A stretch of DNA of 64,000 nt, taken from the sequence record MH675927.1; one strand, written 5' to 3'. The stretch's first letter is position 1. Each line of letters opens with the position of its first letter. This DNA comes from Escherichia phage vB_vPM_PD114. The position numbers and the translations under genes are program-made. The notes below the pieces were generated by a model. That model did not search any database. It saw only the letters and a list, made by a program, of their open reading frames with translations, and was not told the origin of the DNA. Positions 1 through 46,590 of this stretch are shown in pieces.

Positions 1-837
1 TGGATCTTAAACAATATTGGGTCTTGGATTCGCTATATGCAAGATGAATTCTTCCCAACATTGCCTACGACATATCTTCCTATAGTCGGTACTAAAATTA
101 CAATGGCAGGTGATGCTACAGGTGAAGTTACATGGAATGGTAATGCTGCTGTAACATTATCTATTCAAGTCGTAGATAACAGTCACAATCACTTATCAGC
201 TAACATTACAGACGCAACATCAAGCCAAGTTGTAGGGAATGTCCTTGTTAAGCGTGATAATGGTGGTGCTATCTATGCAGGTGATATTTACACTTGTGGT
301 ACAGGTGCTACAGATCCTGCAACATTATTTTTTAGAAACTATAATGGACAAACAGTAGGCAATATGTCTTCTGAACCAGGTGCAGGTGATCAACTCTATA
401 TTTATAGAATAAATCCATCTACTGGAGGAACATCTTGTGGAGTCCGTTTGTATGATGCAGGTTATGTTTTAATAGACAATCCTCGTTCTAATTCTGGTCA
501 AGATACTGGCAATGGTAATGCTCTTGTAAGATTAGATTATCTTAACTCAAGACTAAACTCATTGCAAAGTACACTGCAAAATAATATTAACAACGTTAAT
601 AGCAACTTGCAAGGCCAAATTAATAACATTAACAATAGAGTTTCTTCTGTTGTGTCTTCTATCCGTCTAGGAGCACGTATCCAAGCTGGTGTGTCCGAGT
701 CTCGTTTCTATGCTGGTCACGTGATCACAGGTTGGGGCTTTGGTGATAAGAAAGAACTTCGTGGTGCTTGGTATTGGTCAGCCCCGCTACAATATTATAT
801 TAATGGTAGCTGGATAACAGTAACCAACGTTTCATAA
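1..837 (+). CDS. tail fiber protein, C-terminal part (5-prime partial)
   Basis: Frame 1 is open from nt 1 to TAA at 835-837; G/S/T/N-rich fibre-like composition; directly followed by a fibre assembly chaperone gene. Confidence 0.55.
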   Translation, partial: WILNNIGSWIRYMQDEFFPTLPTTYLPIVGTKITMAGDATGEVTWNGNAAVTLSIQVVDNSHNHLSANITDATSSQVVGNVLVKRDNGGAIYAGDIYTCGTGATDPATLFFRNYNGQTVGNMSSEPGAGDQLYIYRINPSTGGTSCGVRLYDAGYVLIDNPRSNSGQDTGNGNALVRLDYLNSRLNSLQSTLQNNINNVNSNLQGQINNINNRVSSVVSSIRLGARIQAGVSESRFYAGHVITGWGFGDKKELRGAWYWSAPLQYYINGSWITVTNVS

Positions 838-846
838 GGAGAGTCT

Positions 847-1398
847 ATGAAAAAAGATGTTATTTTTACAGGTTTTGAATTGTACGAACCGGAATTAACA
901 GAGGAGAACATTCTTTATCTTTCTGTTGGCGGTGGTTTTTTGCAAGACAAGGATGGTAATGATTGGTATCAACTTCAAAAAACTTTGATGGCTGAATATC
1001 CCGACGCTTATTTCATTACCTTAGATGATAATAATATTGTACGTGGTGCTACTAAAGATGTTACTACCTATTTCCCTGCCGGACAATCTATTTTAGTTAC
1101 ATATAATGCACCAGATAAAATAGAAGATGAAAGTAATATTGGCTCTTGGCAATATGTTGAAGGTAAATTTGTTCCTCACAATAGTCTTGCTATTGAAGAT
1201 GCTACTCTTAAGTTAGAAAAGGAGTTAACTTGGGCTACGAATCAAGTGTCTGCGATTCAAGATTTAGAGGAATTACAAGGTTTATCTCAAGAACAAAAAG
1301 ATTGGTTAGGAAAAGTTAAACTATATCGTGCAACACTGATTCAAATTAACGTTGAAGATGCACCTAATATAACTTGGCCTACAAGACCTAAGAAATAG
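847..1398 (+). CDS. tail fiber assembly protein (chaperone)
   Basis: GGAG RBS before ATG 847; C-terminal QKDWLGKVKLYRATLIQINVEDAPNITWP resembles the conserved C-terminus of caudoviral tail fibre assembly proteins; sits after a fibre gene. Confidence 0.55.
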   Translation: MKKDVIFTGFELYEPELTEENILYLSVGGGFLQDKDGNDWYQLQKTLMAEYPDAYFITLDDNNIVRGATKDVTTYFPAGQSILVTYNAPDKIEDESNIGSWQYVEGKFVPHNSLAIEDATLKLEKELTWATNQVSAIQDLEELQGLSQEQKDWLGKVKLYRATLIQINVEDAPNITWPTRPKK

Positions 1399-1407
1399 GG
1401 GTAATGT

Positions 1408-1749
1408 ATGGAGCTAACAGAAGTATGGGATATCGCTAAAGAGGCGATTATCCCTCTTATTGGTGTAATCTGGGTGGTCTTCAAACAGAAGATAGATGAT
1501 ATGGCAAGTGATTTGGACAAAATGGAAGAGAAATACCGTGAACTAGAAAAGAAGTTGGTGTTTGTTGAATCCACTTATGCTACCAAAGCAGAACTTGCTC
1601 AAATGCTTAACCAGATCAACTCTACATTAATGGCAAATAATACTGCCTTAGAACAGAAGATTGAAAAAATAATGGATTTAAAAAATGCTCCTGTTCAATT
1701 AATGCTAGAGGAGATTACGAAGCGCACACAAAGTAAGGACAAAAATTAA
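1408..1749 (+). CDS. hypothetical protein, N-terminal membrane anchor plus coiled coil
   Basis: 113-aa ORF; hydrophobic AIIPLIGVIWVVF then charged heptad-like region; no recognisable catalytic motif. Confidence 0.45.
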   Translation: MELTEVWDIAKEAIIPLIGVIWVVFKQKIDDMASDLDKMEEKYRELEKKLVFVESTYATKAELAQMLNQINSTLMANNTALEQKIEKIMDLKNAPVQLMLEEITKRTQSKDKN

Positions 1750-4163
1750 TGGCGAATTTTCCAACATATCCTGCTACGACACTAGAACAAGGTGTTGATC
1801 TGGTTATATTCTCGTCTAACCAGATGCATGATGTTATTAACGGGGATGCTACAGCAACTGTAGAAACCGAAACAGGTTTAATACCTACACTGCGTAAAGC
1901 ACTTGTTGATAACTTCTTCTTTAAGAGTCCTGTTGCTTGGTCAGCAGGATCAACTGAAACTGTATTTAACCAGTTACGTTATTTTGAAAACGGCATCTTG
2001 AGTGGGTACTACTATGCCCCATCTGCCACTACTGCGAACCCTGTACCTATGCAGGGTACACCTGTAGGAGACAGTAACTGGACTCTGTACGCTCTTAAAA
2101 CTGAACAGTTAGCTTCAGATGTGTATCCTTGGTATTTTAAAGGTGCTACAGGATATGAAACAGAAATCAGTCCTCCTTATATCTTTGATAATGCTATTGT
2201 CACCATTAACGGTGTAATTCAGATTCAAGGTGAAGCATTTACTATCAAAGATAGTAAAATTATTCTGGCAGAACCATTAGGTTTAGATCCGTCTACTGGT
2301 CTACCTAACAAATTGTTTGCTTTTATTGGTAAAACAACAGCCTCTACTTCTTATGTAGAGAAAAACCTTTTGTCATCTACCACTGGTGCAGCAATGGTTG
2401 GTCTTCCATCTGGAGGCAACCTGTTACAAGCTCAATACTTTGTAACGCCTGAACAGTTTGGTGCAATTGGTGATGGAGTTACCGATGATACTCAAGCAAT
2501 TCTAAAAACCATTACTTTCGCTAACACGAATAACATTCAAGTACGTGCAGATAAGAATTATAGATTCACAAGCTCAATTGCTATGTCTGGTATTCGTTGG
2601 TATGGTGGTACATTCACTGGTAACGGTGGAACAATGATTTCTACTGTGTCCTGTTGGATTGAAAACGTTCGCTTTGAAAAATGTTATGTTAAGATGTTAG
2701 GTGGTGATTGTCGATTCTATCGTAATATCTTCTCCAACGCAACATCTACAGCAGCATTTTTAATGCAAGCAATGACAAGTGAAGGTACGTTGGACTTCAG
2801 TTACAACGAAATGTATGGTTGTAAATATGCGATCCTGCAACAAGGTACTGGAGAAGTAATGACCTATGGGCGTTACTCTAACAACTACATTCACGATATC
2901 AAAGGTGATGCTATTGAACTTAACGTAGTTCAAAGACACTACACTGAAGGTTTGATCATCGAGAATAACCACATTGCTAACGTAGATGCTTCTGGACAAG
3001 GTGCAAACTGGGGTATTGGTATTGGTGTAGCAGGTAGTGGCCCATATGGTGTTGATGCTCCTGATTCACAATATGTACGTAACTTCAGTATCGTTGGAAA
3101 TAGGGTTTACAATTGCCGTCAATGTCTACACGTTGAAATGGGTAAAAACTTCACAATACGTGATAACGAAGTTTATCCTAACACAGCAGTTTCAACAGGT
3201 ACAGGTTTAACTACTTGTGGTGTTGCATTATACGGATGCCAAGACTTTGAAGTTGATGGTTTAACTGGTTATCTGCTTAATGATCCGTCTGTTTCAACAC
3301 GCATGGTCTTTATTGACTGGGGTGTTAACGGTGGAAGATATGCGGGGCCACCAATTAACTTTACAATTAAGAATTTGGATATTCCAGAATCTTCGATTGA
3401 GATTGCAACTGCTGGATCAGACGACTGGGAAAACTCTACAATTGTTAGTAACATCAATTGTAATGATTTTAAATGGCGTGGGCTACCATCTAGCTCTACT
3501 TTTAATAATATTCGTTGCCGTAGTATTGACTTTATTGGTCAACACGGAAGCGGAGAAGGAAGTGGTGGCGGTTTCTATGCTCGCAGCCAATTCACGTATA
3601 TGAAGTGGGTAGGATGTACAGCACTTAGCGGAGATGAAACAACAGTTTCTTTTGCTAAAATCTACACGGATCGTTGCGATCAGGTTGGAAATAACTTTGG
3701 TGTTCCAACTGCTGTTGATGGTACAGGTCATCGTGGGCCAGTCTTAACCACTATTTCTGAACAATATTTTACAGATTATGATGAATTCCCAGGTGGGCGT
3801 GACTTCCCTACTGGAACAGTTATTCATTGTGCAAGCGGTAAAAAACACGTTGTTACAGCAGGTGGTGCTTTCTTTAGTGATAATGAGAAAATAAAAGCAA
3901 CTGTTACAGGTCAAACCTATCTACAGTCTAATGCTTTAAACTGGGCTAGTAATGGCTACGCTAAAGCAGCAGGTACTAAGATTGTTATTCCAGGTGCAGG
4001 AGCAAATGGTGGCGATCTTGTGACAACTATAGCACGTGCTACATATGTGACAAATAGTTTGTACACAATAGATATTGCAGATCCAATTGTAACACCTACA
4101 GCAGAGAATACACAAATTAAAGCTCTGAACCCTGTTACTTTTGTTACTGTCAATAATGCTTAA
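1749..4163 (+). CDS. tailspike / tail fiber protein with right-handed beta-helix (pectin-lyase-like) domain, possible depolymerase
   Basis: 804-aa ORF; repeated Asn/Gly-rich beta-helix rungs (NNHIANVDASGQG, VGNRVYNCRQCLHVEMGKNFTIRDNEVY); ATG overlaps upstream stop. Confidence 0.6.
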   Translation: MANFPTYPATTLEQGVDLVIFSSNQMHDVINGDATATVETETGLIPTLRKALVDNFFFKSPVAWSAGSTETVFNQLRYFENGILSGYYYAPSATTANPVPMQGTPVGDSNWTLYALKTEQLASDVYPWYFKGATGYETEISPPYIFDNAIVTINGVIQIQGEAFTIKDSKIILAEPLGLDPSTGLPNKLFAFIGKTTASTSYVEKNLLSSTTGAAMVGLPSGGNLLQAQYFVTPEQFGAIGDGVTDDTQAILKTITFANTNNIQVRADKNYRFTSSIAMSGIRWYGGTFTGNGGTMISTVSCWIENVRFEKCYVKMLGGDCRFYRNIFSNATSTAAFLMQAMTSEGTLDFSYNEMYGCKYAILQQGTGEVMTYGRYSNNYIHDIKGDAIELNVVQRHYTEGLIIENNHIANVDASGQGANWGIGIGVAGSGPYGVDAPDSQYVRNFSIVGNRVYNCRQCLHVEMGKNFTIRDNEVYPNTAVSTGTGLTTCGVALYGCQDFEVDGLTGYLLNDPSVSTRMVFIDWGVNGGRYAGPPINFTIKNLDIPESSIEIATAGSDDWENSTIVSNINCNDFKWRGLPSSSTFNNIRCRSIDFIGQHGSGEGSGGGFYARSQFTYMKWVGCTALSGDETTVSFAKIYTDRCDQVGNNFGVPTAVDGTGHRGPVLTTISEQYFTDYDEFPGGRDFPTGTVIHCASGKKHVVTAGGAFFSDNEKIKATVTGQTYLQSNALNWASNGYAKAAGTKIVIPGAGANGGDLVTTIARATYVTNSLYTIDIADPIVTPTAENTQIKALNPVTFVTVNNA

Positions 4164-33931: not shown

Positions 33932-34402
33932 TTAGTCAGATTCCCAAATGTTGTCTTTCTTAACCCACATTCGTTGATTATCTGAACCTCTATAACGTTT
34001 CGTTGTTGGTTGATTCATATCATACTTACCATCTATCACTATGTCAACCAGTTTTTTAATTTTCTCTGGAATTTCTTCAAAAAGATATCCTGTATATAAG
34101 ACAATATCTTTTTTGTTTCCAAAACAATCTCTTACCTTCTCAAGAACATACTCTACAGTGTCAATGTTCTCTTTGTCAAGAGGTTCACCACCTAAAACTG
34201 TTAATCCTTTAATGAAAGGTCGAGATAAATCTTCCAAGATAAGATCTAATGTTTCAGCAGTGAACTCTTGTCCGTAATTATACGACCAGGCTTTCTGGTT
34301 AAAGCAGCCACGGCAACCGTGGCTACAACCGCTCACCCACAAAGAGCATCTTACACCGTCACCGTTGAGCATGTCAACAGGTTCATATCCGGCGTAATTC
34401 AA
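33932..34402 (-). CDS. nrdG: anaerobic ribonucleotide reductase activating protein NrdG (radical SAM)
   Basis: MNYAGYEPVDMLNGDGVRCSLWVSGCSHGCRGCFNQ follows the NrdG N-terminus including the CxxxCxxC radical-SAM cluster; TTG start; 4-nt overlap with nrdD stop. Confidence 0.85.
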   Translation of the reverse strand: MNYAGYEPVDMLNGDGVRCSLWVSGCSHGCRGCFNQKAWSYNYGQEFTAETLDLILEDLSRPFIKGLTVLGGEPLDKENIDTVEYVLEKVRDCFGNKKDIVLYTGYLFEEIPEKIKKLVDIVIDGKYDMNQPTTKRYRGSDNQRMWVKKDNIWESD

Positions 34403-35340
34403 AAATGTTTCTCCCTTTCTAGTACCTCTTGCATTTTACCTTTATTATAAGGGCGAGAGTTAGGAGCAGAAAGGTATCCTGACACTCTTCTGATCACAGA
34501 TATGGATTCTTCTTCATGATTACCGCAACTTGGACACTCGAAGCCTTTAGCCGTTGCTTTAAACTCACCATGAAAACCACATTTGAAACACTGATCTACA
34601 GGTTGGTTCACGCCAAAATAAGGAATTTTGTTGTAGGCATAATCTACAAGAGTTTCCAGTGCTTGCAAGTTATTTTTAAGGTTTGGTGTTTCTACATAAC
34701 CTATGTTCCCACCGTTACTAATTTGTGCAAAACCTTCCTCATAATCCCACTTTTGGAACGGGGTAGTGTGCATCCATACAGGTTGATGGAAAGAGTTTGT
34801 CAAGTAGTCACGATCAATAGAACCAGGATAGCGATCATTTAATGCTTTGGCAAATTTATAGCACAAGGATTCTGCTGGTGTTCCATACAAACTAAAAGCT
34901 AAACCAGAACGTTCTTTAAATGTGCCACAGATATCCTTCATATATTGAAGGATGTTTTTACCCATTGCTTTTGGATTGGTGTTACCTGGGTATAAAATCT
35001 CCATAGCTTCTGCTAAACCTACATAACCGATACTAATAGAGGCATAACCACCTTCGAATAGTTTACCAATCTCTTCATTAGCTTCTAGTCGAGCTAAAGC
35101 CCCTTCCATAAACAATGTAGGGTTTTGAGATGCTTTGGTATGTCTAATACGGTTAACACGTAGCATATGTGCCTTATACGCCATCTCCATATGTTGTTCC
35201 AACAGTTCAGTAAATAAGATGCCCTTTTCACGGGACTCTGCTGCAATGATAGGTAAGTTTAAAGAAACTACGCCTAAGTTGAAACGACCATCATATTTTT
35301 CACCTTGCTCTGTTGCATAGTATGACAAGAAACTTCTACA
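34399..35340 (-). CDS. nrdD: anaerobic ribonucleotide reductase NrdD, exon 2
   Basis: C-terminal zinc ribbon CFKCGFHG...CPSCG and glycyl-radical motif RRVSGYL; exon starts TGT AGA (CRSFLSYY) right after the predicted 3-prime splice site. Confidence 0.8.
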   Translation of the reverse strand, partial: CRSFLSYYATEQGEKYDGRFNLGVVSLNLPIIAAESREKGILFTELLEQHMEMAYKAHMLRVNRIRHTKASQNPTLFMEGALARLEANEEIGKLFEGGYASISIGYVGLAEAMEILYPGNTNPKAMGKNILQYMKDICGTFKERSGLAFSLYGTPAESLCYKFAKALNDRYPGSIDRDYLTNSFHQPVWMHTTPFQKWDYEEGFAQISNGGNIGYVETPNLKNNLQALETLVDYAYNKIPYFGVNQPVDQCFKCGFHGEFKATAKGFECPSCGNHEEESISVIRRVSGYLSAPNSRPYNKGKMQEVLEREKHF

Positions 35341-35619
35341 CATTATGTTCAAAGTGGCTCGCAAGGCCACTCCCGCACCATTACGTGCTGCTGCATGTCA
35401 CCATGCAGATCAGACTATATCTTCATGCTTAAAGCATGTCTACCATTTGGGGTGTCATAGGCTTACACCCTACGCTGCTACATTCATCACAGCTAGTCGT
35501 TAGGCATTTCGTAATAGTACCCCCTTCTTCTGTGTTGGGAGTTCTGTTACGTTTAGCACGGGATTGTCTCGTTGAGAGTTCCCCCGTTTAGGCAGATTTT
35601 ACATGAGCAGTTATAGTTT
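35341..35619 (-). ncRNA. group I self-splicing intron (td-like, no internal ORF) interrupting nrdD
   Basis: 279 nt between the two nrdD reading frames; core-like TAAACGGGGGAACTCTCAACGAGACAATCCCGTGCTAAAC and P7 3-prime element AAGATATAGTC; CTGCATG-GTGA-CATGCAG hairpin near the 3-prime end; ends GAACATAATG; exon 1 ends ...ATGGGT. Confidence 0.75.
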
Positions 35620-36477
35620 ACCCATGCTTGTGACGCGACCATCTGAAGATCCTGTAACTTCTTTGTTTAAAGGTACAGAGATAAAATCAGGATAAATGCG
35701 TTCAGCACAACACTCCATTGCCAGTTGCTTCAAATCATAGTTTGGATCGCCAGCTTTCATGTTAACACCATCTTCCAAGAAGAAGATAACTTTAGGAAAC
35801 ACAGGAGTTACCCTATCTTTTCCTAATCCTTGTTTGTGCACCATTAGGTAGTTTTTAGTGATCATTCTACCAAAAGCAGAGGTATCCAAACCTAAACTAA
35901 TTGTTATAAAAGGTGACTGACCATTTACACTCATTAGAGTGTTCACCTGGTAGATTAAAGTTTGCATTGCATCATAGACCTGTTTATCTACCATACGCAT
36001 AGCAATATCATAATCGCCAACATCGGCATATATTTTATTAAAACTTGCTTTAACGTATTGACTAAGCCCAGTATCAACATGTGCACAAGTTTGTCCACCA
36101 TATTGGCTAGAGGCTACTGCTTGAATAATTTGAGTTAGGACAGTAGTTGCTACACCGATAGATTTTGGTTTTTCAATATGTGCATTACCAATACGGAAAC
36201 CGTTCTCAAGCATATCTTGGTAATTTACCAGGCAACAATTAGTTAGAGGTGAGAGTAAATAATCTAAATCGTGAATGTGACCATACCCGCTTTTATGCCA
36301 TTCTGCCAGATCTTCCGGTAAAATATGGGTCATTGCCATGTGCTTGCTCAGAATACCTGCTAGTAAGTCTCGGTGAGTATTAACAATCATTGCAGGTTTG
36401 TTTGCATTTTCACGAGTAAATTCTTCGGATGTTTGTTCGAGGAATCCGATTACATCCTCATATAGTTTTTGGGTCAT
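35620..36477 (-). CDS. nrdD: anaerobic ribonucleotide reductase NrdD, exon 1
   Basis: Start ATG 36477 (RBS GGAGG); reading frame stops 9 nt into the intron; splicing predicted to join ...RVTSMG to CRSFLSYY..., giving a 599-aa product. Confidence 0.8.
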
Positions 36478-43343: not shown

Positions 43344-43694
43344 TTAACCCAAACACATCTGTGCAATCAAGCCCTGTATAAATTTATTAGCTTCTTTACT
43401 GTCGTAATCAGTTTCTTCTGGATATCCATCTTCATCGTACACAACTGTACCTTCAATATACCCTGCCTCAATTAAGGCGCGGATCATATCAAATTGCCAG
43501 CATGAATTACCAAATGGACGTTTACCATTAAAACACTCTTCTTCTCTCCATAACGTAGAGAGTAGTTGTCGGAAATATTCCCGTACAGTGACAGTACCAA
43601 GATCTGAATCCTCAAACATAACATCCAGGGCATCAGGATTGCTTTTCTCTACATAAGGAATATATTTAACACCATTAATAGTTACATCAAGCAT
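43344..43694 (-). CDS. hypothetical protein
   Basis: 116-aa ORF. Confidence 0.4.
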   Translation of the reverse strand: MLDVTINGVKYIPYVEKSNPDALDVMFEDSDLGTVTVREYFRQLLSTLWREEECFNGKRPFGNSCWQFDMIRALIEAGYIEGTVVYDEDGYPEETDYDSKEANKFIQGLIAQMCLG

Positions 43695-44057
43695 TTATTT
43701 CTCCTTATCATCATATTCTAGGAACATATCTGCACGATATGCTTTACGCTCTTCAAACTTAGCAGGATCTACAACAATAAGCAATACAAGGTTAACATCT
43801 AAATACTTCTTAACAAATAGAAATAAATCTTTTCCACAGTTAAAACCTACACCAGTATAGGCATCCCCATATTGATCTACTGATTTAATCTTCTTACTAA
43901 CCGTACATTCTATGCTATTCTTTTCTTCTTGGTATAAGGCTTTCCCACCCCAATATGTAAAGAATTTAGTACCGTCAGCACCAAGTTTAAAACCCTCTGT
44001 TGCATGTCCCGCAAATGAAAGTAAACATAACCAAGTGATCATCAGGTACTTTAGCAT
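43695..44057 (-). CDS. hypothetical secreted protein
   Basis: Start at ATG 44057 (RBS GGGTGG); signal peptide MLKYLMITWLCLLSFAGHA. Confidence 0.4.
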   Translation of the reverse strand: MLKYLMITWLCLLSFAGHATEGFKLGADGTKFFTYWGGKALYQEEKNSIECTVSKKIKSVDQYGDAYTGVGFNCGKDLFLFVKKYLDVNLVLLIVVDPAKFEERKAYRADMFLEYDDKEK

Positions 44058-44058
44058 T

Positions 44059-44541
44059 TTAACCACCCAATTGCAAATGTTTAGAAAGAACAATATCCCA
44101 CTGATCACCACAACCGTTATCTATGCGGAACATAATGTACGTATCATCTTCTTCTACGACATACCGTACCTCATAGGAGTTACAACAGCCTTCCCAATTT
44201 TTAACGGCTTCTGGTGTATGATGTGTAAGAATTTCATTACCATCATATGACCAAAACAAAGGGGTAAGGTTTTCGAAGGTCAGTGAAGTAGGGTTTACTT
44301 CATCTTTAACTGCTTCCTCATATTCTTTATGTGTTTGTACTGCTTTAGTTAGTGTACTCATGTCTATCTCCTTTTCTCCTTCTTGACTATGAAGGATAGC
44401 GAACTCTCTAAACTCCACCTCACGCCATGTTTTCAGGTAGTGCTTTATAATTTGATCAACATCTGCCTGTTCAACGTTACTTTTCAAGCAATAGTAGTCA
44501 TGGTCTTCACCCATTCTACCCCATATGCTATACATTGTCAT
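44059..44541 (-). CDS. hypothetical protein
   Basis: 160-aa ORF. Confidence 0.4.
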   Translation of the reverse strand: MTMYSIWGRMGEDHDYYCLKSNVEQADVDQIIKHYLKTWREVEFREFAILHSQEGEKEIDMSTLTKAVQTHKEYEEAVKDEVNPTSLTFENLTPLFWSYDGNEILTHHTPEAVKNWEGCCNSYEVRYVVEEDDTYIMFRIDNGCGDQWDIVLSKHLQLGG

Positions 44542-44809
44542 CTGATTGATCCTTCACATTGTTCTTGGCATACACAGGAATAACATCATGGTGATCTTTA
44601 TTACTTTCGTCTGTTAAAGCCCAAAACAACTTACCTGCCGGATGTTTAAAGATGTAAGCAATAGGTTCCTCTTCCTGTGCTTCTTTGCTACGGATGCCAT
44701 CCCGCCAGGCAAGCCAAGTGTAAATCATCACTTCTTGACGTTCTTCTTCATTAGGCCACAGATGGGGTAGAAAGTTTTTATCAAACCATTGCTTAAATTC
44801 TTCAGTCAT
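44528..44809 (-). CDS. hypothetical protein
   Basis: 93-aa ORF. Confidence 0.4.
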   Translation of the reverse strand: MTEEFKQWFDKNFLPHLWPNEEERQEVMIYTWLAWRDGIRSKEAQEEEPIAYIFKHPAGKLFWALTDESNKDHHDVIPVYAKNNVKDQSDDNV

Positions 44810-44819
44810 AGTCTACTCC

Positions 44820-44984
44820 TTAGCGTACAAAGTTAACTTCTGCTTCTTTCAGCTTTGACACTTCTACATAACCACCATGATCATCTTTAATCCATTCTTT
44901 TCCTTTACGGATGATAACAGGATACGTAGAGTGAGTAAGTTTAGGTACAGATCTTTTTGTTTTAGTGATAGAAATGTTTTGCAT
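44820..44984 (-). CDS. small hypothetical protein (not in supplied ORF track)
   Basis: ATG 44984 with RBS AAGGAA; 54 aa. Confidence 0.3.
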   Translation of the reverse strand: MQNISITKTKRSVPKLTHSTYPVIIRKGKEWIKDDHGGYVEVSKLKEAEVNFVR

Positions 44985-45044
44985 AGTAGTTTCCTTAGTA
45001 AATTTTACATAGAGTTTAGATTATTTAGTAGGTAGAGTCAATAA

Positions 45045-45311
45045 TTAATTACTGTTAGATCTGTACTCTGTCTTCCATTCGCAATGGTAAACTTCAACAG
45101 GTTCTAACTTCCAGTGTTCAGGAACTAGTTCAGGACAATATCTACAAAAGAGAAATAGATAGATAACTAAGACAGGTATTAAATAGTAAAATGGTATACG
45201 ATCATAACCATACTTACGAGATAACATGTAGACATATAGATAGGGTATAACAATTAAACCTATAACTATAAGTAAGAAGAGAAGTATAAACCTCAGTGTA
45301 GTAACATCCAT
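45045..45311 (-). CDS. small membrane protein
   Basis: 88 aa, two hydrophobic helices. Confidence 0.4.
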   Translation of the reverse strand: MDVTTLRFILLFLLIVIGLIVIPYLYVYMLSRKYGYDRIPFYYLIPVLVIYLFLFCRYCPELVPEHWKLEPVEVYHCEWKTEYRSNSN

Positions 45312-45475
45312 AGTATTCTCCTATACAGTAATATACTCTGTTCCTGCCCCTCCATGAGTGACAGGAACAATATCTATAGAGAATACTAACTCGCTTCGCT
45401 CGTCACCTTTCAGGTTTAGGGTAGCATGTTTTTCTGAAAAAGTCAATACTCTCCACAAAACTTTACAAAATGTTT

Positions 45476-45748
45476 TTACATAGGTACAACAGAGTCTGTT
45501 TTGAAGTCGTACATATGATTTACACCTGTGATTTTTGACATAGAGATTGCACGTTTAGCACCTGCAATTACCTGGTCTGTCTTCTTAATCTCTTCACGGA
45601 ACTTACGTACAGTTAGAGAGAAGAAACGATGATCCATCCATTGACGATTCACACGATCACGCTTGAAGTGACGGAAATCTTCAATCTGTTTATTGCGCAA
45701 TCGGCGCAGTACATGCAATAATTTATAGTAAGGGTGTTTACTTTTCAT
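45476..45748 (-). CDS. hypothetical basic protein
   Basis: 90-aa ORF rich in K/R. Confidence 0.4.
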   Translation of the reverse strand: MKSKHPYYKLLHVLRRLRNKQIEDFRHFKRDRVNRQWMDHRFFSLTVRKFREEIKKTDQVIAGAKRAISMSKITGVNHMYDFKTDSVVPM

Positions 45749-45751
45749 AAT

Positions 45752-46180
45752 TTATTCTCCAAATCGAAAATCGTCAATATCATCAAACCATACACAATGG
45801 CGAGTCCTTTCTTTTTCTGTTGCAGACATTGTTTCAACAGCTTTAGGACTAAGCACAACAGGAATGTAACGAACAGGTCGTTCATAATAGTAGCCATACT
45901 TTTCTGTATTAGCTGCCTCAAAGACTTTACGGCGTTCTTCAAGATCTTCTATGGTGAATCCTACCATATAACCATCATGTTTGCTACCCCATCCTTCCTC
46001 ACTTTCAACAATCGGGATATAAAAGCCGTTACGCGTTCCTGACGCTGGTTCTTCTTGAGCCTGAAGGCAAGCCTCCCATCCTGCTTTAAAGACGTTATAG
46101 AGCGATTTACGCACGTTATGAGTGCCGCTTTCGCTTGCTGGATAGAGTTCATTAAATTTGTCTTGGATTTGTTGTGTCAT
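45752..46180 (-). CDS. hypothetical protein
   Basis: 142-aa ORF; RBS AAGGGG. Confidence 0.45.
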   Translation of the reverse strand: MTQQIQDKFNELYPASESGTHNVRKSLYNVFKAGWEACLQAQEEPASGTRNGFYIPIVESEEGWGSKHDGYMVGFTIEDLEERRKVFEAANTEKYGYYYERPVRYIPVVLSPKAVETMSATEKERTRHCVWFDDIDDFRFGE

Positions 46181-46323
46181 ACTCGCCCCTTAGTGATTAT
46201 TTGACCAGCTAAACAAATAGCTTGTAGTACAATAAAGAAGTAGCCTAATTTTACACTACCCAATACCCAGAATGCAATGTTTGCAAACAAACAAAAAGCA
46301 ATATTAAGTCTAAAGAATAACAT
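46177..46323 (-). CDS. small membrane protein (not in supplied ORF track)
   Basis: 48 aa (MLFFRLNIAFCLFANIAFWVLGSVKLGYFFIVLQAICLAGQIITKGRV); translationally coupled on both sides (TAAATG upstream, ATGA downstream). Confidence 0.4.
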   Translation of the reverse strand: MLFFRLNIAFCLFANIAFWVLGSVKLGYFFIVLQAICLAGQIITKGRV

Positions 46324-46590
46324 TTAATCCCCTTCATATTTAGGTAAAGGCATATATGCCACAATAGGAGGGTAATCAAAGTGAAAATGATGGTTCACCA
46401 CAATAATCTTACCAGACATACTTTTATGCACTTCACAATACCCTTTTCCACCATCTTCCATTACCACCACATACTCACCTAGTGGGATATCGTATGGATC
46501 TTCTACTTTTACCCATCCTGTCATTTTGTAAACTCCTCGTAGTAAGGTAAAGCCTTGATCAGTTGTTCTGAAGTGCCATTTTGCACCCAC
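46324..46590 (-). CDS. hypothetical protein
   Basis: 88-aa ORF. Confidence 0.4.
   Translation of the reverse strand: MGAKWHFRTTDQGFTLLRGVYKMTGWVKVEDPYDIPLGEYVVVMEDGGKGYCEVHKSMSGKIIVVNHHFHFDYPPIVAYMPLPKYEGD

Follow-up and report, generated by a model that had tools for sequence, protein, structure and literature searches.

In the 64-kb window analysed here (the whole stretch of phage DNA, to which all positions below refer), the anaerobic ribonucleotide reductase gene nrdD is spread over two reading frames separated by 279 nt. Is this insert an intron that leaves the RNA, a spacer between the genes of two cooperating polypeptides, or the mark of a decayed gene? The window represents a phi92-like myovirus, its nrdD region being 99.3% identical to that of phi92. 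An initial annotation, made from the sequence, had proposed a td-like, self-splicing group I intron at 35341-35619; the coordinates proved exact, and every string that it had quoted was found there on the minus strand, which it had not stated. Our reading, to which we give a probability of roughly 90%, is that the insert is a phage IA2-type group I intron in nrdD of a phi92-like coliphage, which would be spliced out of the transcript and probably represents a degenerate mobile element.

The nrdD locus and the boundaries of the insert

All features of the locus lie on the minus strand. Exon 1 of nrdD (35620..36477, 286 codons) starts with ATG at 36477, downstream of a GGAGG, a start and ribosome-binding site that agree with the phi92 annotation, and ends with ACA AGC ATG GGT (T S M G). 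Exon 2 (34399..35340, 313 codons plus stop) starts with UGU AGA AGU (C R S) and closes with TGA at 34401..34399. Between the two lies the 279-nt group I (IA2-type) intron, devoid of an endonuclease ORF (35341..35619), which begins AAACUAUAAC at 35619 and terminates GAACAUAAUG at 35341. Its 3' end reads ...AUAAUG, such that the last nucleotide is a G (omega-G, 35341..35341), as located by comparison with the intron-less junction.

Those junctions were provided by six intron-less Justusliebigvirus alleles (EC.P2, J-01, Nernie, PaulScherrer, inny and W22), which read ...AGCATGGGT|TGC CGT AG... and have otherwise near-identical exons. Since all six join at GGT|TG, the intron is exactly 35619..35341, and neither end can be slid by a base. 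At the junction, the ligated exons are identical in every base to the intron-less alleles, leaving the host ORF uninterrupted. Upon in-silico joining, the exons read ...RVTSMG|CRSFLSYY... and translate into the 599-aa NrdD that had been claimed, with its CFKCG...CPSCG zinc ribbon (CxxC...CxxC), the RRVSGYL motif and an intact Gly_radical domain. At the level of Pfam profiles, the exon 1 half matched NRDD positions 1-263 (E 1e-72) and the exon 2 half positions 264-562, the two abutting exactly at the junction, while Gly_radical was matched in exon 2 (E 5e-26). In annotation, nrdD of the window is thus best entered as a single spliced gene of 599 aa, rather than as a pseudogene or a pair of fragments.

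The reading frame of exon 1 meets an in-frame UAA three codons past the 5' splice site (GGU|AAA CUA UAA). An intein or any other protein-level element was ruled out by this in-frame stop three codons into the insert.

The splice point separates the Gly codon of the MGCRS motif from its Cys codon. In the alignment with T4 NrdD, MGC corresponds to residues 288-290, the cysteine being Cys290, which we take from the T4 NrdD structure to be the catalytic thiyl-radical cysteine. As a general rule, phage introns occupy functionally critical, conserved sequence (PMC2988022), and an insertion directly 5' of the codon for the catalytic cysteine fits this rule. The locus can serve as a textbook case of a selfish ribozyme that interrupts a phage ribonucleotide reductase gene at the most conserved codon of the active site, in line with group I introns being an ordinary feature of phage nucleotide-metabolism genes.

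Directly downstream of nrdD and outside the intron lies the activase gene nrdG (33932..34402; from the ORF list and the phi92 annotation), given here as context only. The TTG with which it starts shares bases with the TGA stop codon of nrdD (TTGA, 34399-34402), an arrangement that suggests translational coupling of reductase and activase.

Prior records of the intron

The intron is already known, as its splice is annotated in the phi92 record. Phage phi92 (NC_023693 / FR775895) carries it in the same gene, at the same site and at the same length of 279 nt, with 278 of 279 nt identical; the sole difference is at intron nt 105 (window 35515), which is A in the window and G in phi92. In both the RefSeq and the EMBL record of phi92, gene 192A is entered as a "spliced variant" whose CDS is in two pieces, with 2079 - 1800 = 279 nt left out. 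That annotation joins the two exons but gives the intron no RNA-level annotation. A literature search on phi92 or Justusliebigvirus in combination with intron returned nothing specific to the nrdD intron, the phi92 genome paper lying outside the search. Added here are the corrected strand and helix labels, the resemblance of the 5' half to sunY, the location just ahead of the codon for the catalytic cysteine and the loss of the endonuclease gene by deletion.

Several features of the public records deserve mention. The phi92 RefSeq record (locus 624-2702) also lists both exon fragments as separate genes, which is redundant and could mislead, and a "ribosome binding site" is placed in the phi92 record inside what is here intron helix P9.2. 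Most of the other sister records examined annotate nrdD as two fragments, and a spurious "hypothetical protein" is often placed in the gap. Four unannotated records labelled "Campylobacter phage" (MG065639, MG065645, MG065656 and MG065689; A150, A145, C3 and A110a) are 98.8% identical to this phi92-like E. coli phage region, including the intron; judged by this sequence, the Campylobacter jejuni host label of these four MG0656xx records looks doubtful.

The insert matches a group I intron in sequence and predicted fold

The covariance-model search that the initial annotation had proposed as a check gave an above-threshold group I match: Rfam model RF00028 (Intron_gpI) aligned on the minus strand over model positions 1-253 of 253 with 72.5 bits (gathering threshold 50; E 1.8e-16), far beyond what chance would give. 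It was the sole above-threshold Rfam match in the 64-kb window. A structure from P1 to P9.2 was drawn by hand, and was tested by MAFFT alignment and explicit pair counting over seven introns from the same site, namely those of the window, three compact IMG/VR copies, an rV5-like phage, JSE and Vibrio phage F99 (the latter three with their ORFs excised).

In this structure, the P1 5' strand CAUGGGU, which is the last 7 nt of the exon (35620..35626), pairs with the internal guide sequence GCUCAUG (P1 3' strand; intron nt 12-18, 35602..35608), the latter being identical in the T4 sunY intron. At the 5' splice site, the terminal exon U(-1) forms a U.G wobble with G12. The P1 helix was 100% paired in the seven relatives, yet this is a nearly invariant helix that was partly fixed by the search pattern. 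There follow, within 35558..35596, the P3 5' strand UCUGCC (35591-35596), J3/4, P4 (ACGGGG/UCCCGU) and P5 (UCUC/GAGA), as defined by covariation and the minimum-free-energy (MFE) fold and with three, two and one compensatory pairs in P3, P4 and P5 respectively. The P6 arm (35504..35557) consists of P6 (GC/GC), P6a (CGUAA/UUACG; three compensatory pairs) and the P6b hairpin (ACUCCC/GGGGGU), and it is followed by the P7 5' strand GACUA (35494..35498).

Next come P7.1 (GCUG/CAGC) and P7.2 (GGGUGU/ACACCC), together spanning 35450..35493, both present in the MFE fold and with two compensatory pairs each. Such extra helices, placed between the P7 5' strand and the P3 3' strand, are the defining trait of subgroup IA; P7.1 and P7.2 together with homology to the T4 introns assign the intron to subgroup IA2. 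The P3 3' strand GGUAGA (35439..35444) was 100% paired, and the adjoining P8 hairpin CAUGCU-UUA-AGCAUG (35424..35438) showed compensatory changes in four of its six pairs. J8/7 and the P7 3' strand (AAGAUA-UAGUC, 35413..35423) were placed by the Rfam alignment and are invariant. The 3' part is made up of P9 (CUGCAUG-GUGA-CAUGCAG), P9.1 (GCAC/GUGC) and P9.2 (AGUGGC/GCCACU), all within 35353..35408 and all in the MFE fold; P9.2 contains three compensatory pairs, and the changes in P9 are one-sided only.

Over the seven introns, standard pairs filled 93.4% of the cells, against 29-45% when the partners were slid by 1-3 columns, and pairs with changes on both sides numbered 25, against 1-7 in the slid controls. 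Among 500 shuffles, none reached the observed value in four of the five measures, while 66 did so in the fifth, the number of further standard pair types. Compensatory changes were present in P3, P4, P5, P6a, P7.1, P7.2, P8, P9.1 and P9.2. P7 was 100% paired and invariant in all seven sequences, so that covariation is uninformative there, as it is for most of P1. An independent MFE fold recovered all hand-drawn helices except the pseudoknot that P7 forms with P3, with z = -2.97 relative to shuffles. The covariance model, the intron-less alleles, the covariation and the independent fold all agree on a group I intron. A candidate P10 between intron CUAUA and exon 2 UGUAG was 86% paired, with no covariation and no consistent equivalent in other family members, and is not claimed.

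As for the helices named in the initial annotation, the string called a P3-P7-like core is in fact J3/4-P4-P5-P4'-P6(5'), whereas the labels given to AAGATATAGTC (a P7 3' strand element; here J8/7 plus the P7 3' strand), to the P9 hairpin and to the 3' end were right.

These data bear directly on whether the locus could be a split gene without splicing, in which a non-catalytic insert separates two polypeptides that assemble into NrdD after translation. Functional split reductases do have a precedent in Aeh1 NrdA, which is split by mobE (PMC3653736, PMC7344957), and the separate listing of the halves in the phi92 record, with an "RBS" within the insert, could be taken the same way. We regard this possibility as barely credible: i) the insert scored far above the Rfam threshold and displayed extensive compensatory covariation, unlike a non-RNA element; ii) the break falls inside the conserved active-site MGCRS motif; iii) the supposed second start (GTG at 35370) lies inside P9.2 and would add 10 residues foreign to NrdD.

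Predicted course of splicing

Splicing, catalysis and mobility are predictions here, whereas the structure, the boundaries, the homology and the deletion rest on the analyses presented. By the standard group I pathway, the transcript would fold into the P1-P9.2 structure, with exon CAUGGGU paired to the guide GCUCAUG and the U.G wobble thereby set at the 5' splice site. Free guanosine held in P7 would then attack the 5' splice site, after which the released 3'-OH of exon 1 would attack behind the terminal G (35341). GGU would thus be joined to UGU, restoring the conserved ...SMG-CRSFL... finger-loop, with the catalytic cysteine as the first codon of exon 2. On unspliced RNA, translation would halt at the UAA three codons into the intron. 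As an analogy only, HNH-containing introns in other genes of a Vequintavirinae phage were shown by RT-PCR to be spliced (PMC7344957).

Relationship to the introns of T4

The description "td-like" was borne out in part: the 3' half does resemble td, but the guide and P3-P6 are closest to the T4 nrdD (sunY) intron. Identity to the T4 introns amounted to 70% over 220 nt for sunY, 85% over 47 nt plus 68% over 174 nt for td, and 68% over 112 nt for nrdB. In total identical nucleotides, td (158, in two segments) and sunY (154, in one segment) were about equal. The 5' segment, from the guide GCUCAUG (P1 3' strand) through P6, was 81% identical to sunY, 73% to the same-site intron of Vibrio phage F99 and 65% to td.

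T4 td has an IA2-type core, and shares with the window intron the P3-P4 stretch (85% over 47 nt), the 3' half (68% identical, intron nt 111-279) and an identical terminal GAACAUAAUG. It differs in residing in another gene, in using another guide and in encoding a GIY-YIG endonuclease (I-TevI). A td-type 5' architecture was not found in the window intron: td has about 20 extra nt that form a P2 hairpin between P1 and P3, while the model used here has no P2 there and the guide is that of sunY.

The T4 sunY intron, on the other hand, shares with the window intron the host gene nrdD, the guide GCUCAUG and both P7.1 and P7.2. It occupies a different site, after nt 538 (codon 180), which is 110 codons upstream and has AUGAGU instead of AUGGGU as 5' exon; the MG|C site of T4 itself is uninterrupted (ATG GGT TGC CGT). 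It is also longer, at 1033 nt, and carries the GIY-YIG endonuclease I-TevII (so named in the T4 record). As the window intron matches sunY nt 14-197 without a break, the extra length of sunY must lie downstream of that stretch and not in the P6 arm. The shared features, among them a near-identical 5' region at P3-P6 (window 35552-35619 against T4 nrdD, record positions 43535-46385), suggest that sunY and the window intron represent one lineage at two nrdD sites with similar 5' exons.

Loss of the endonuclease gene

No sense-strand ORF longer than 29 aa was found inside the window intron, as expected from the statement that it has no homing endonuclease ORF. In arall, VEcB, SD2, phiWec187 and several Phapecoctavirus records, the intron is 769 nt long. 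In the arall copy, 490 nt are inserted after P6b and before the P6a 3' strand, and outside this indel it equals the window intron. The insert encodes a 169-aa protein, which aligned end to end with I-HmuI (PDB 1u3e; E 8e-9), the HNH nicking endonuclease of the SPO1 DNA-polymerase intron; the window copy differs from that system in having no I-HmuI-like ORF. Pfam matches of the 169-aa ORF to HNH_3 and I-HmuI_NUMOD-like were weak and under the curated cut-offs. The tail of the ORF (…EFCYEMPND) and its UAG stop extend into P6a', P6' and the P7 5' strand.

Apart from a clean deletion that runs between two CTG repeats (TACTG[GTATG…GTTCTG]TTACG), the phi92 sequence is exactly that of arall, and comparison with arall and phi92 places the scar of the deletion in the window at 35515..35516, between intron nt 104 and 105. 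Judging from these alignments, the ORF-less state is a secondary loss by a 490-nt deletion in the phi92/window lineage: one such event took out the HNH gene and left the ribozyme intact. A second group of phages (pEC-M2929, the same as pEC-M2929-1AR.1, ECGD1, PD06, AMO3598 and others) has a 290-nt intron with other deletion endpoints, seen in pEC-M2929 at about intron nt 95-125. Because these endpoints differ from those of the phi92/window type, the endonuclease gene was lost at least twice independently. The pEC-M2929-1AR.1 record annotates a spurious 33-aa "hypothetical protein" inside its intron.

The reverse direction, in which the 279-nt ORF-less form is ancestral and the endonuclease gene entered the P6 arm later in arall-type phages, deserves consideration: independent invasion of intron loops by endonuclease genes is generally known, compact ORF-less relatives exist, and parsimony alone gives no direction when the indel is all that distinguishes introns with the ORF from those without it. 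We consider it quite unlikely, as three observations stand against it. The pEC-M2929 variant retains 18 nt of C-terminal ORF coding sequence (…YDYEFC) outside any core helix, which is explicable only by deletion; the phi92 junction is exactly as expected from a deletion between two CTG repeats; and the P6b hairpin of the window is also found, covarying, in the 90%-identical, ORF-containing rV5-like intron but is absent from the compact ORF-less forms.

With deletion as the preferred direction, the P6b hairpin (ACUCCC/GGGGGU) appears as a part kept in the window which, in the sister phages, lies just 5' of the AUG of the ORF and includes a likely Shine-Dalgarno sequence. Hairpin control of intron-ORF translation is known for T4 introns, and we infer by analogy that the P6b hairpin may regulate translation of the endonuclease in the same way.

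The deletion also raises the possibility of a splicing-impaired relic, in which the loss within the P6 arm, the change at nt 105 or both damaged folding, and nrdD is effectively a pseudogene in this lineage. Both the deletion and the G-to-A change are located at the P6a/P6b junction, and the latter removes, relative to phi92, one possible C-G pair that would extend P6a. Selection on nrdD may moreover be weak under aerobic propagation. For T4, nrdD is dispensable in aerobic laboratory growth, and if the same applies here, viability of the phage is no proof of continued splicing. Yet such a relic is highly unlikely, for several reasons: i) the changes are limited to a peripheral arm, where natural compact relatives (L020, L099 and L119) have only a short hairpin; ii) all core helices and junctions are intact; iii) the exons are open, free of frameshifts and stops, and near-identical to intron-less alleles; iv) the same ORF-less form, with an identity of at least 99%, recurs in 17 phage records.

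An intact ribozyme without its endonuclease gene is thus the state that we favour for the window copy. With this gene deleted, the copy has lost the means of homing on its own, and any remaining mobility would depend on help in trans or on recombination in co-infected cells. Within Justusliebigvirus, empty, ORF-containing and ORF-less alleles coexist at an otherwise identical site, with exons about 99% identical, which is the patchy distribution expected of a mobile intron. Near-identical genomes therefore display three stages of the homing-endonuclease cycle, namely the empty site, the intron with its endonuclease gene and, by two independent deletions, the intron that has lost it. Together with the sequence link to T4 sunY, these stages would make the locus a natural system well suited to studies of how introns are gained, decay and switch sites.

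Introns at the same site in other phages

Introns at the same MG|C site and with the same guide were found in JSE (Krischvirus), in rV5-like Vequintavirus phages (SYGMH1, JEP1 and others) and in Vibrio phage F99. The introns of JSE, the rV5-like phages and arall/VEcB/SD2 share the insertion point MG|CRS and the identical flanks ATGGGT|TGTAGAAGT, and their ribozymes are 72-100% identical to that of the window. They differ in being 760-769 nt long, with a 169-173-aa HNH ORF between P6b and the P6a 3' strand. Beyond these phages, several dozen IMG/VR contigs carry introns at the MG|C site, in very diverse NrdD sequences and with ORFs that are HNH-like, GIY-YIG-like or absent; the presence of both HNH-like and GIY-YIG-like ORFs means that different endonuclease families occupy one site. 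In the first IMG/VR pattern scan, about 70 of 120 matches had no group I core motif and were set aside as random. As the scan pattern forces ATGGGT and GCUCAU, conservation of P1 in that set is circular. Among 78 nrdD loci of an IMG/VR sample that were picked independently of the intron, at least nine carry an intron at the MG|C site. An IMG/VR scan for intron-less junctions returned one locus, which was not nrdD.

The start of exon 2 (window 35335-35340) differs between the two kinds of allele within Justusliebigvirus: it is TGT AGA in all intron-bearing alleles and TGC CGT in six of six intron-less ones, the two being synonymous. Across the intron family, TGYAGA was present in 30 of 32 intron-bearing alleles. 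In the IMG/VR sample, all nine intron-bearing alleles have it, as do 30 of the 63 without an intron; Fisher's test gave p = 0.003, with no correction for relatedness. TGYAGA as an absolute signature of the intron was rejected, since 30 of 63 intron-less alleles share it; the relationship is one of enrichment only. Co-conversion during homing, a target preference of the endonuclease or a requirement of the ribozyme in the 3' exon are possible sources of the pattern, and the TGT AGA and TGC CGT forms may mark alleles susceptible and resistant to the endonuclease, or else a co-conversion tract.

A wider proposal, which we put forward tentatively and consider more doubtful than probable, is that the MG|C-site introns and T4 sunY form one mobile lineage. 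Such a lineage would have spread over at least four distant phage groups, with its endonuclease cassette repeatedly swapped or lost (I-HmuI-like HNH, GIY-YIG-like or none), and would have jumped between two nrdD sites that share AUGRGU and the guide GCUCAU. If true, the jump within nrdD would show in nature an ectopic transposition directed by the guide sequence, with reverse splicing as one conceivable route.

Two further observations came from these loci. A distinct NrdD type (…YFSTMG|CRTANG…) was seen in nine IMG/VR loci, with introns at the same site and with the same guide, some of them containing GIY-YIG-like ORFs. In Vibrio phage F99, nrdD is interrupted twice, by an HNH-ORF insert at about aa 127/128 and by an 819-nt intron at MG|C, and its record (locus 1-3700) also divides the 3' exon into two CDSs.
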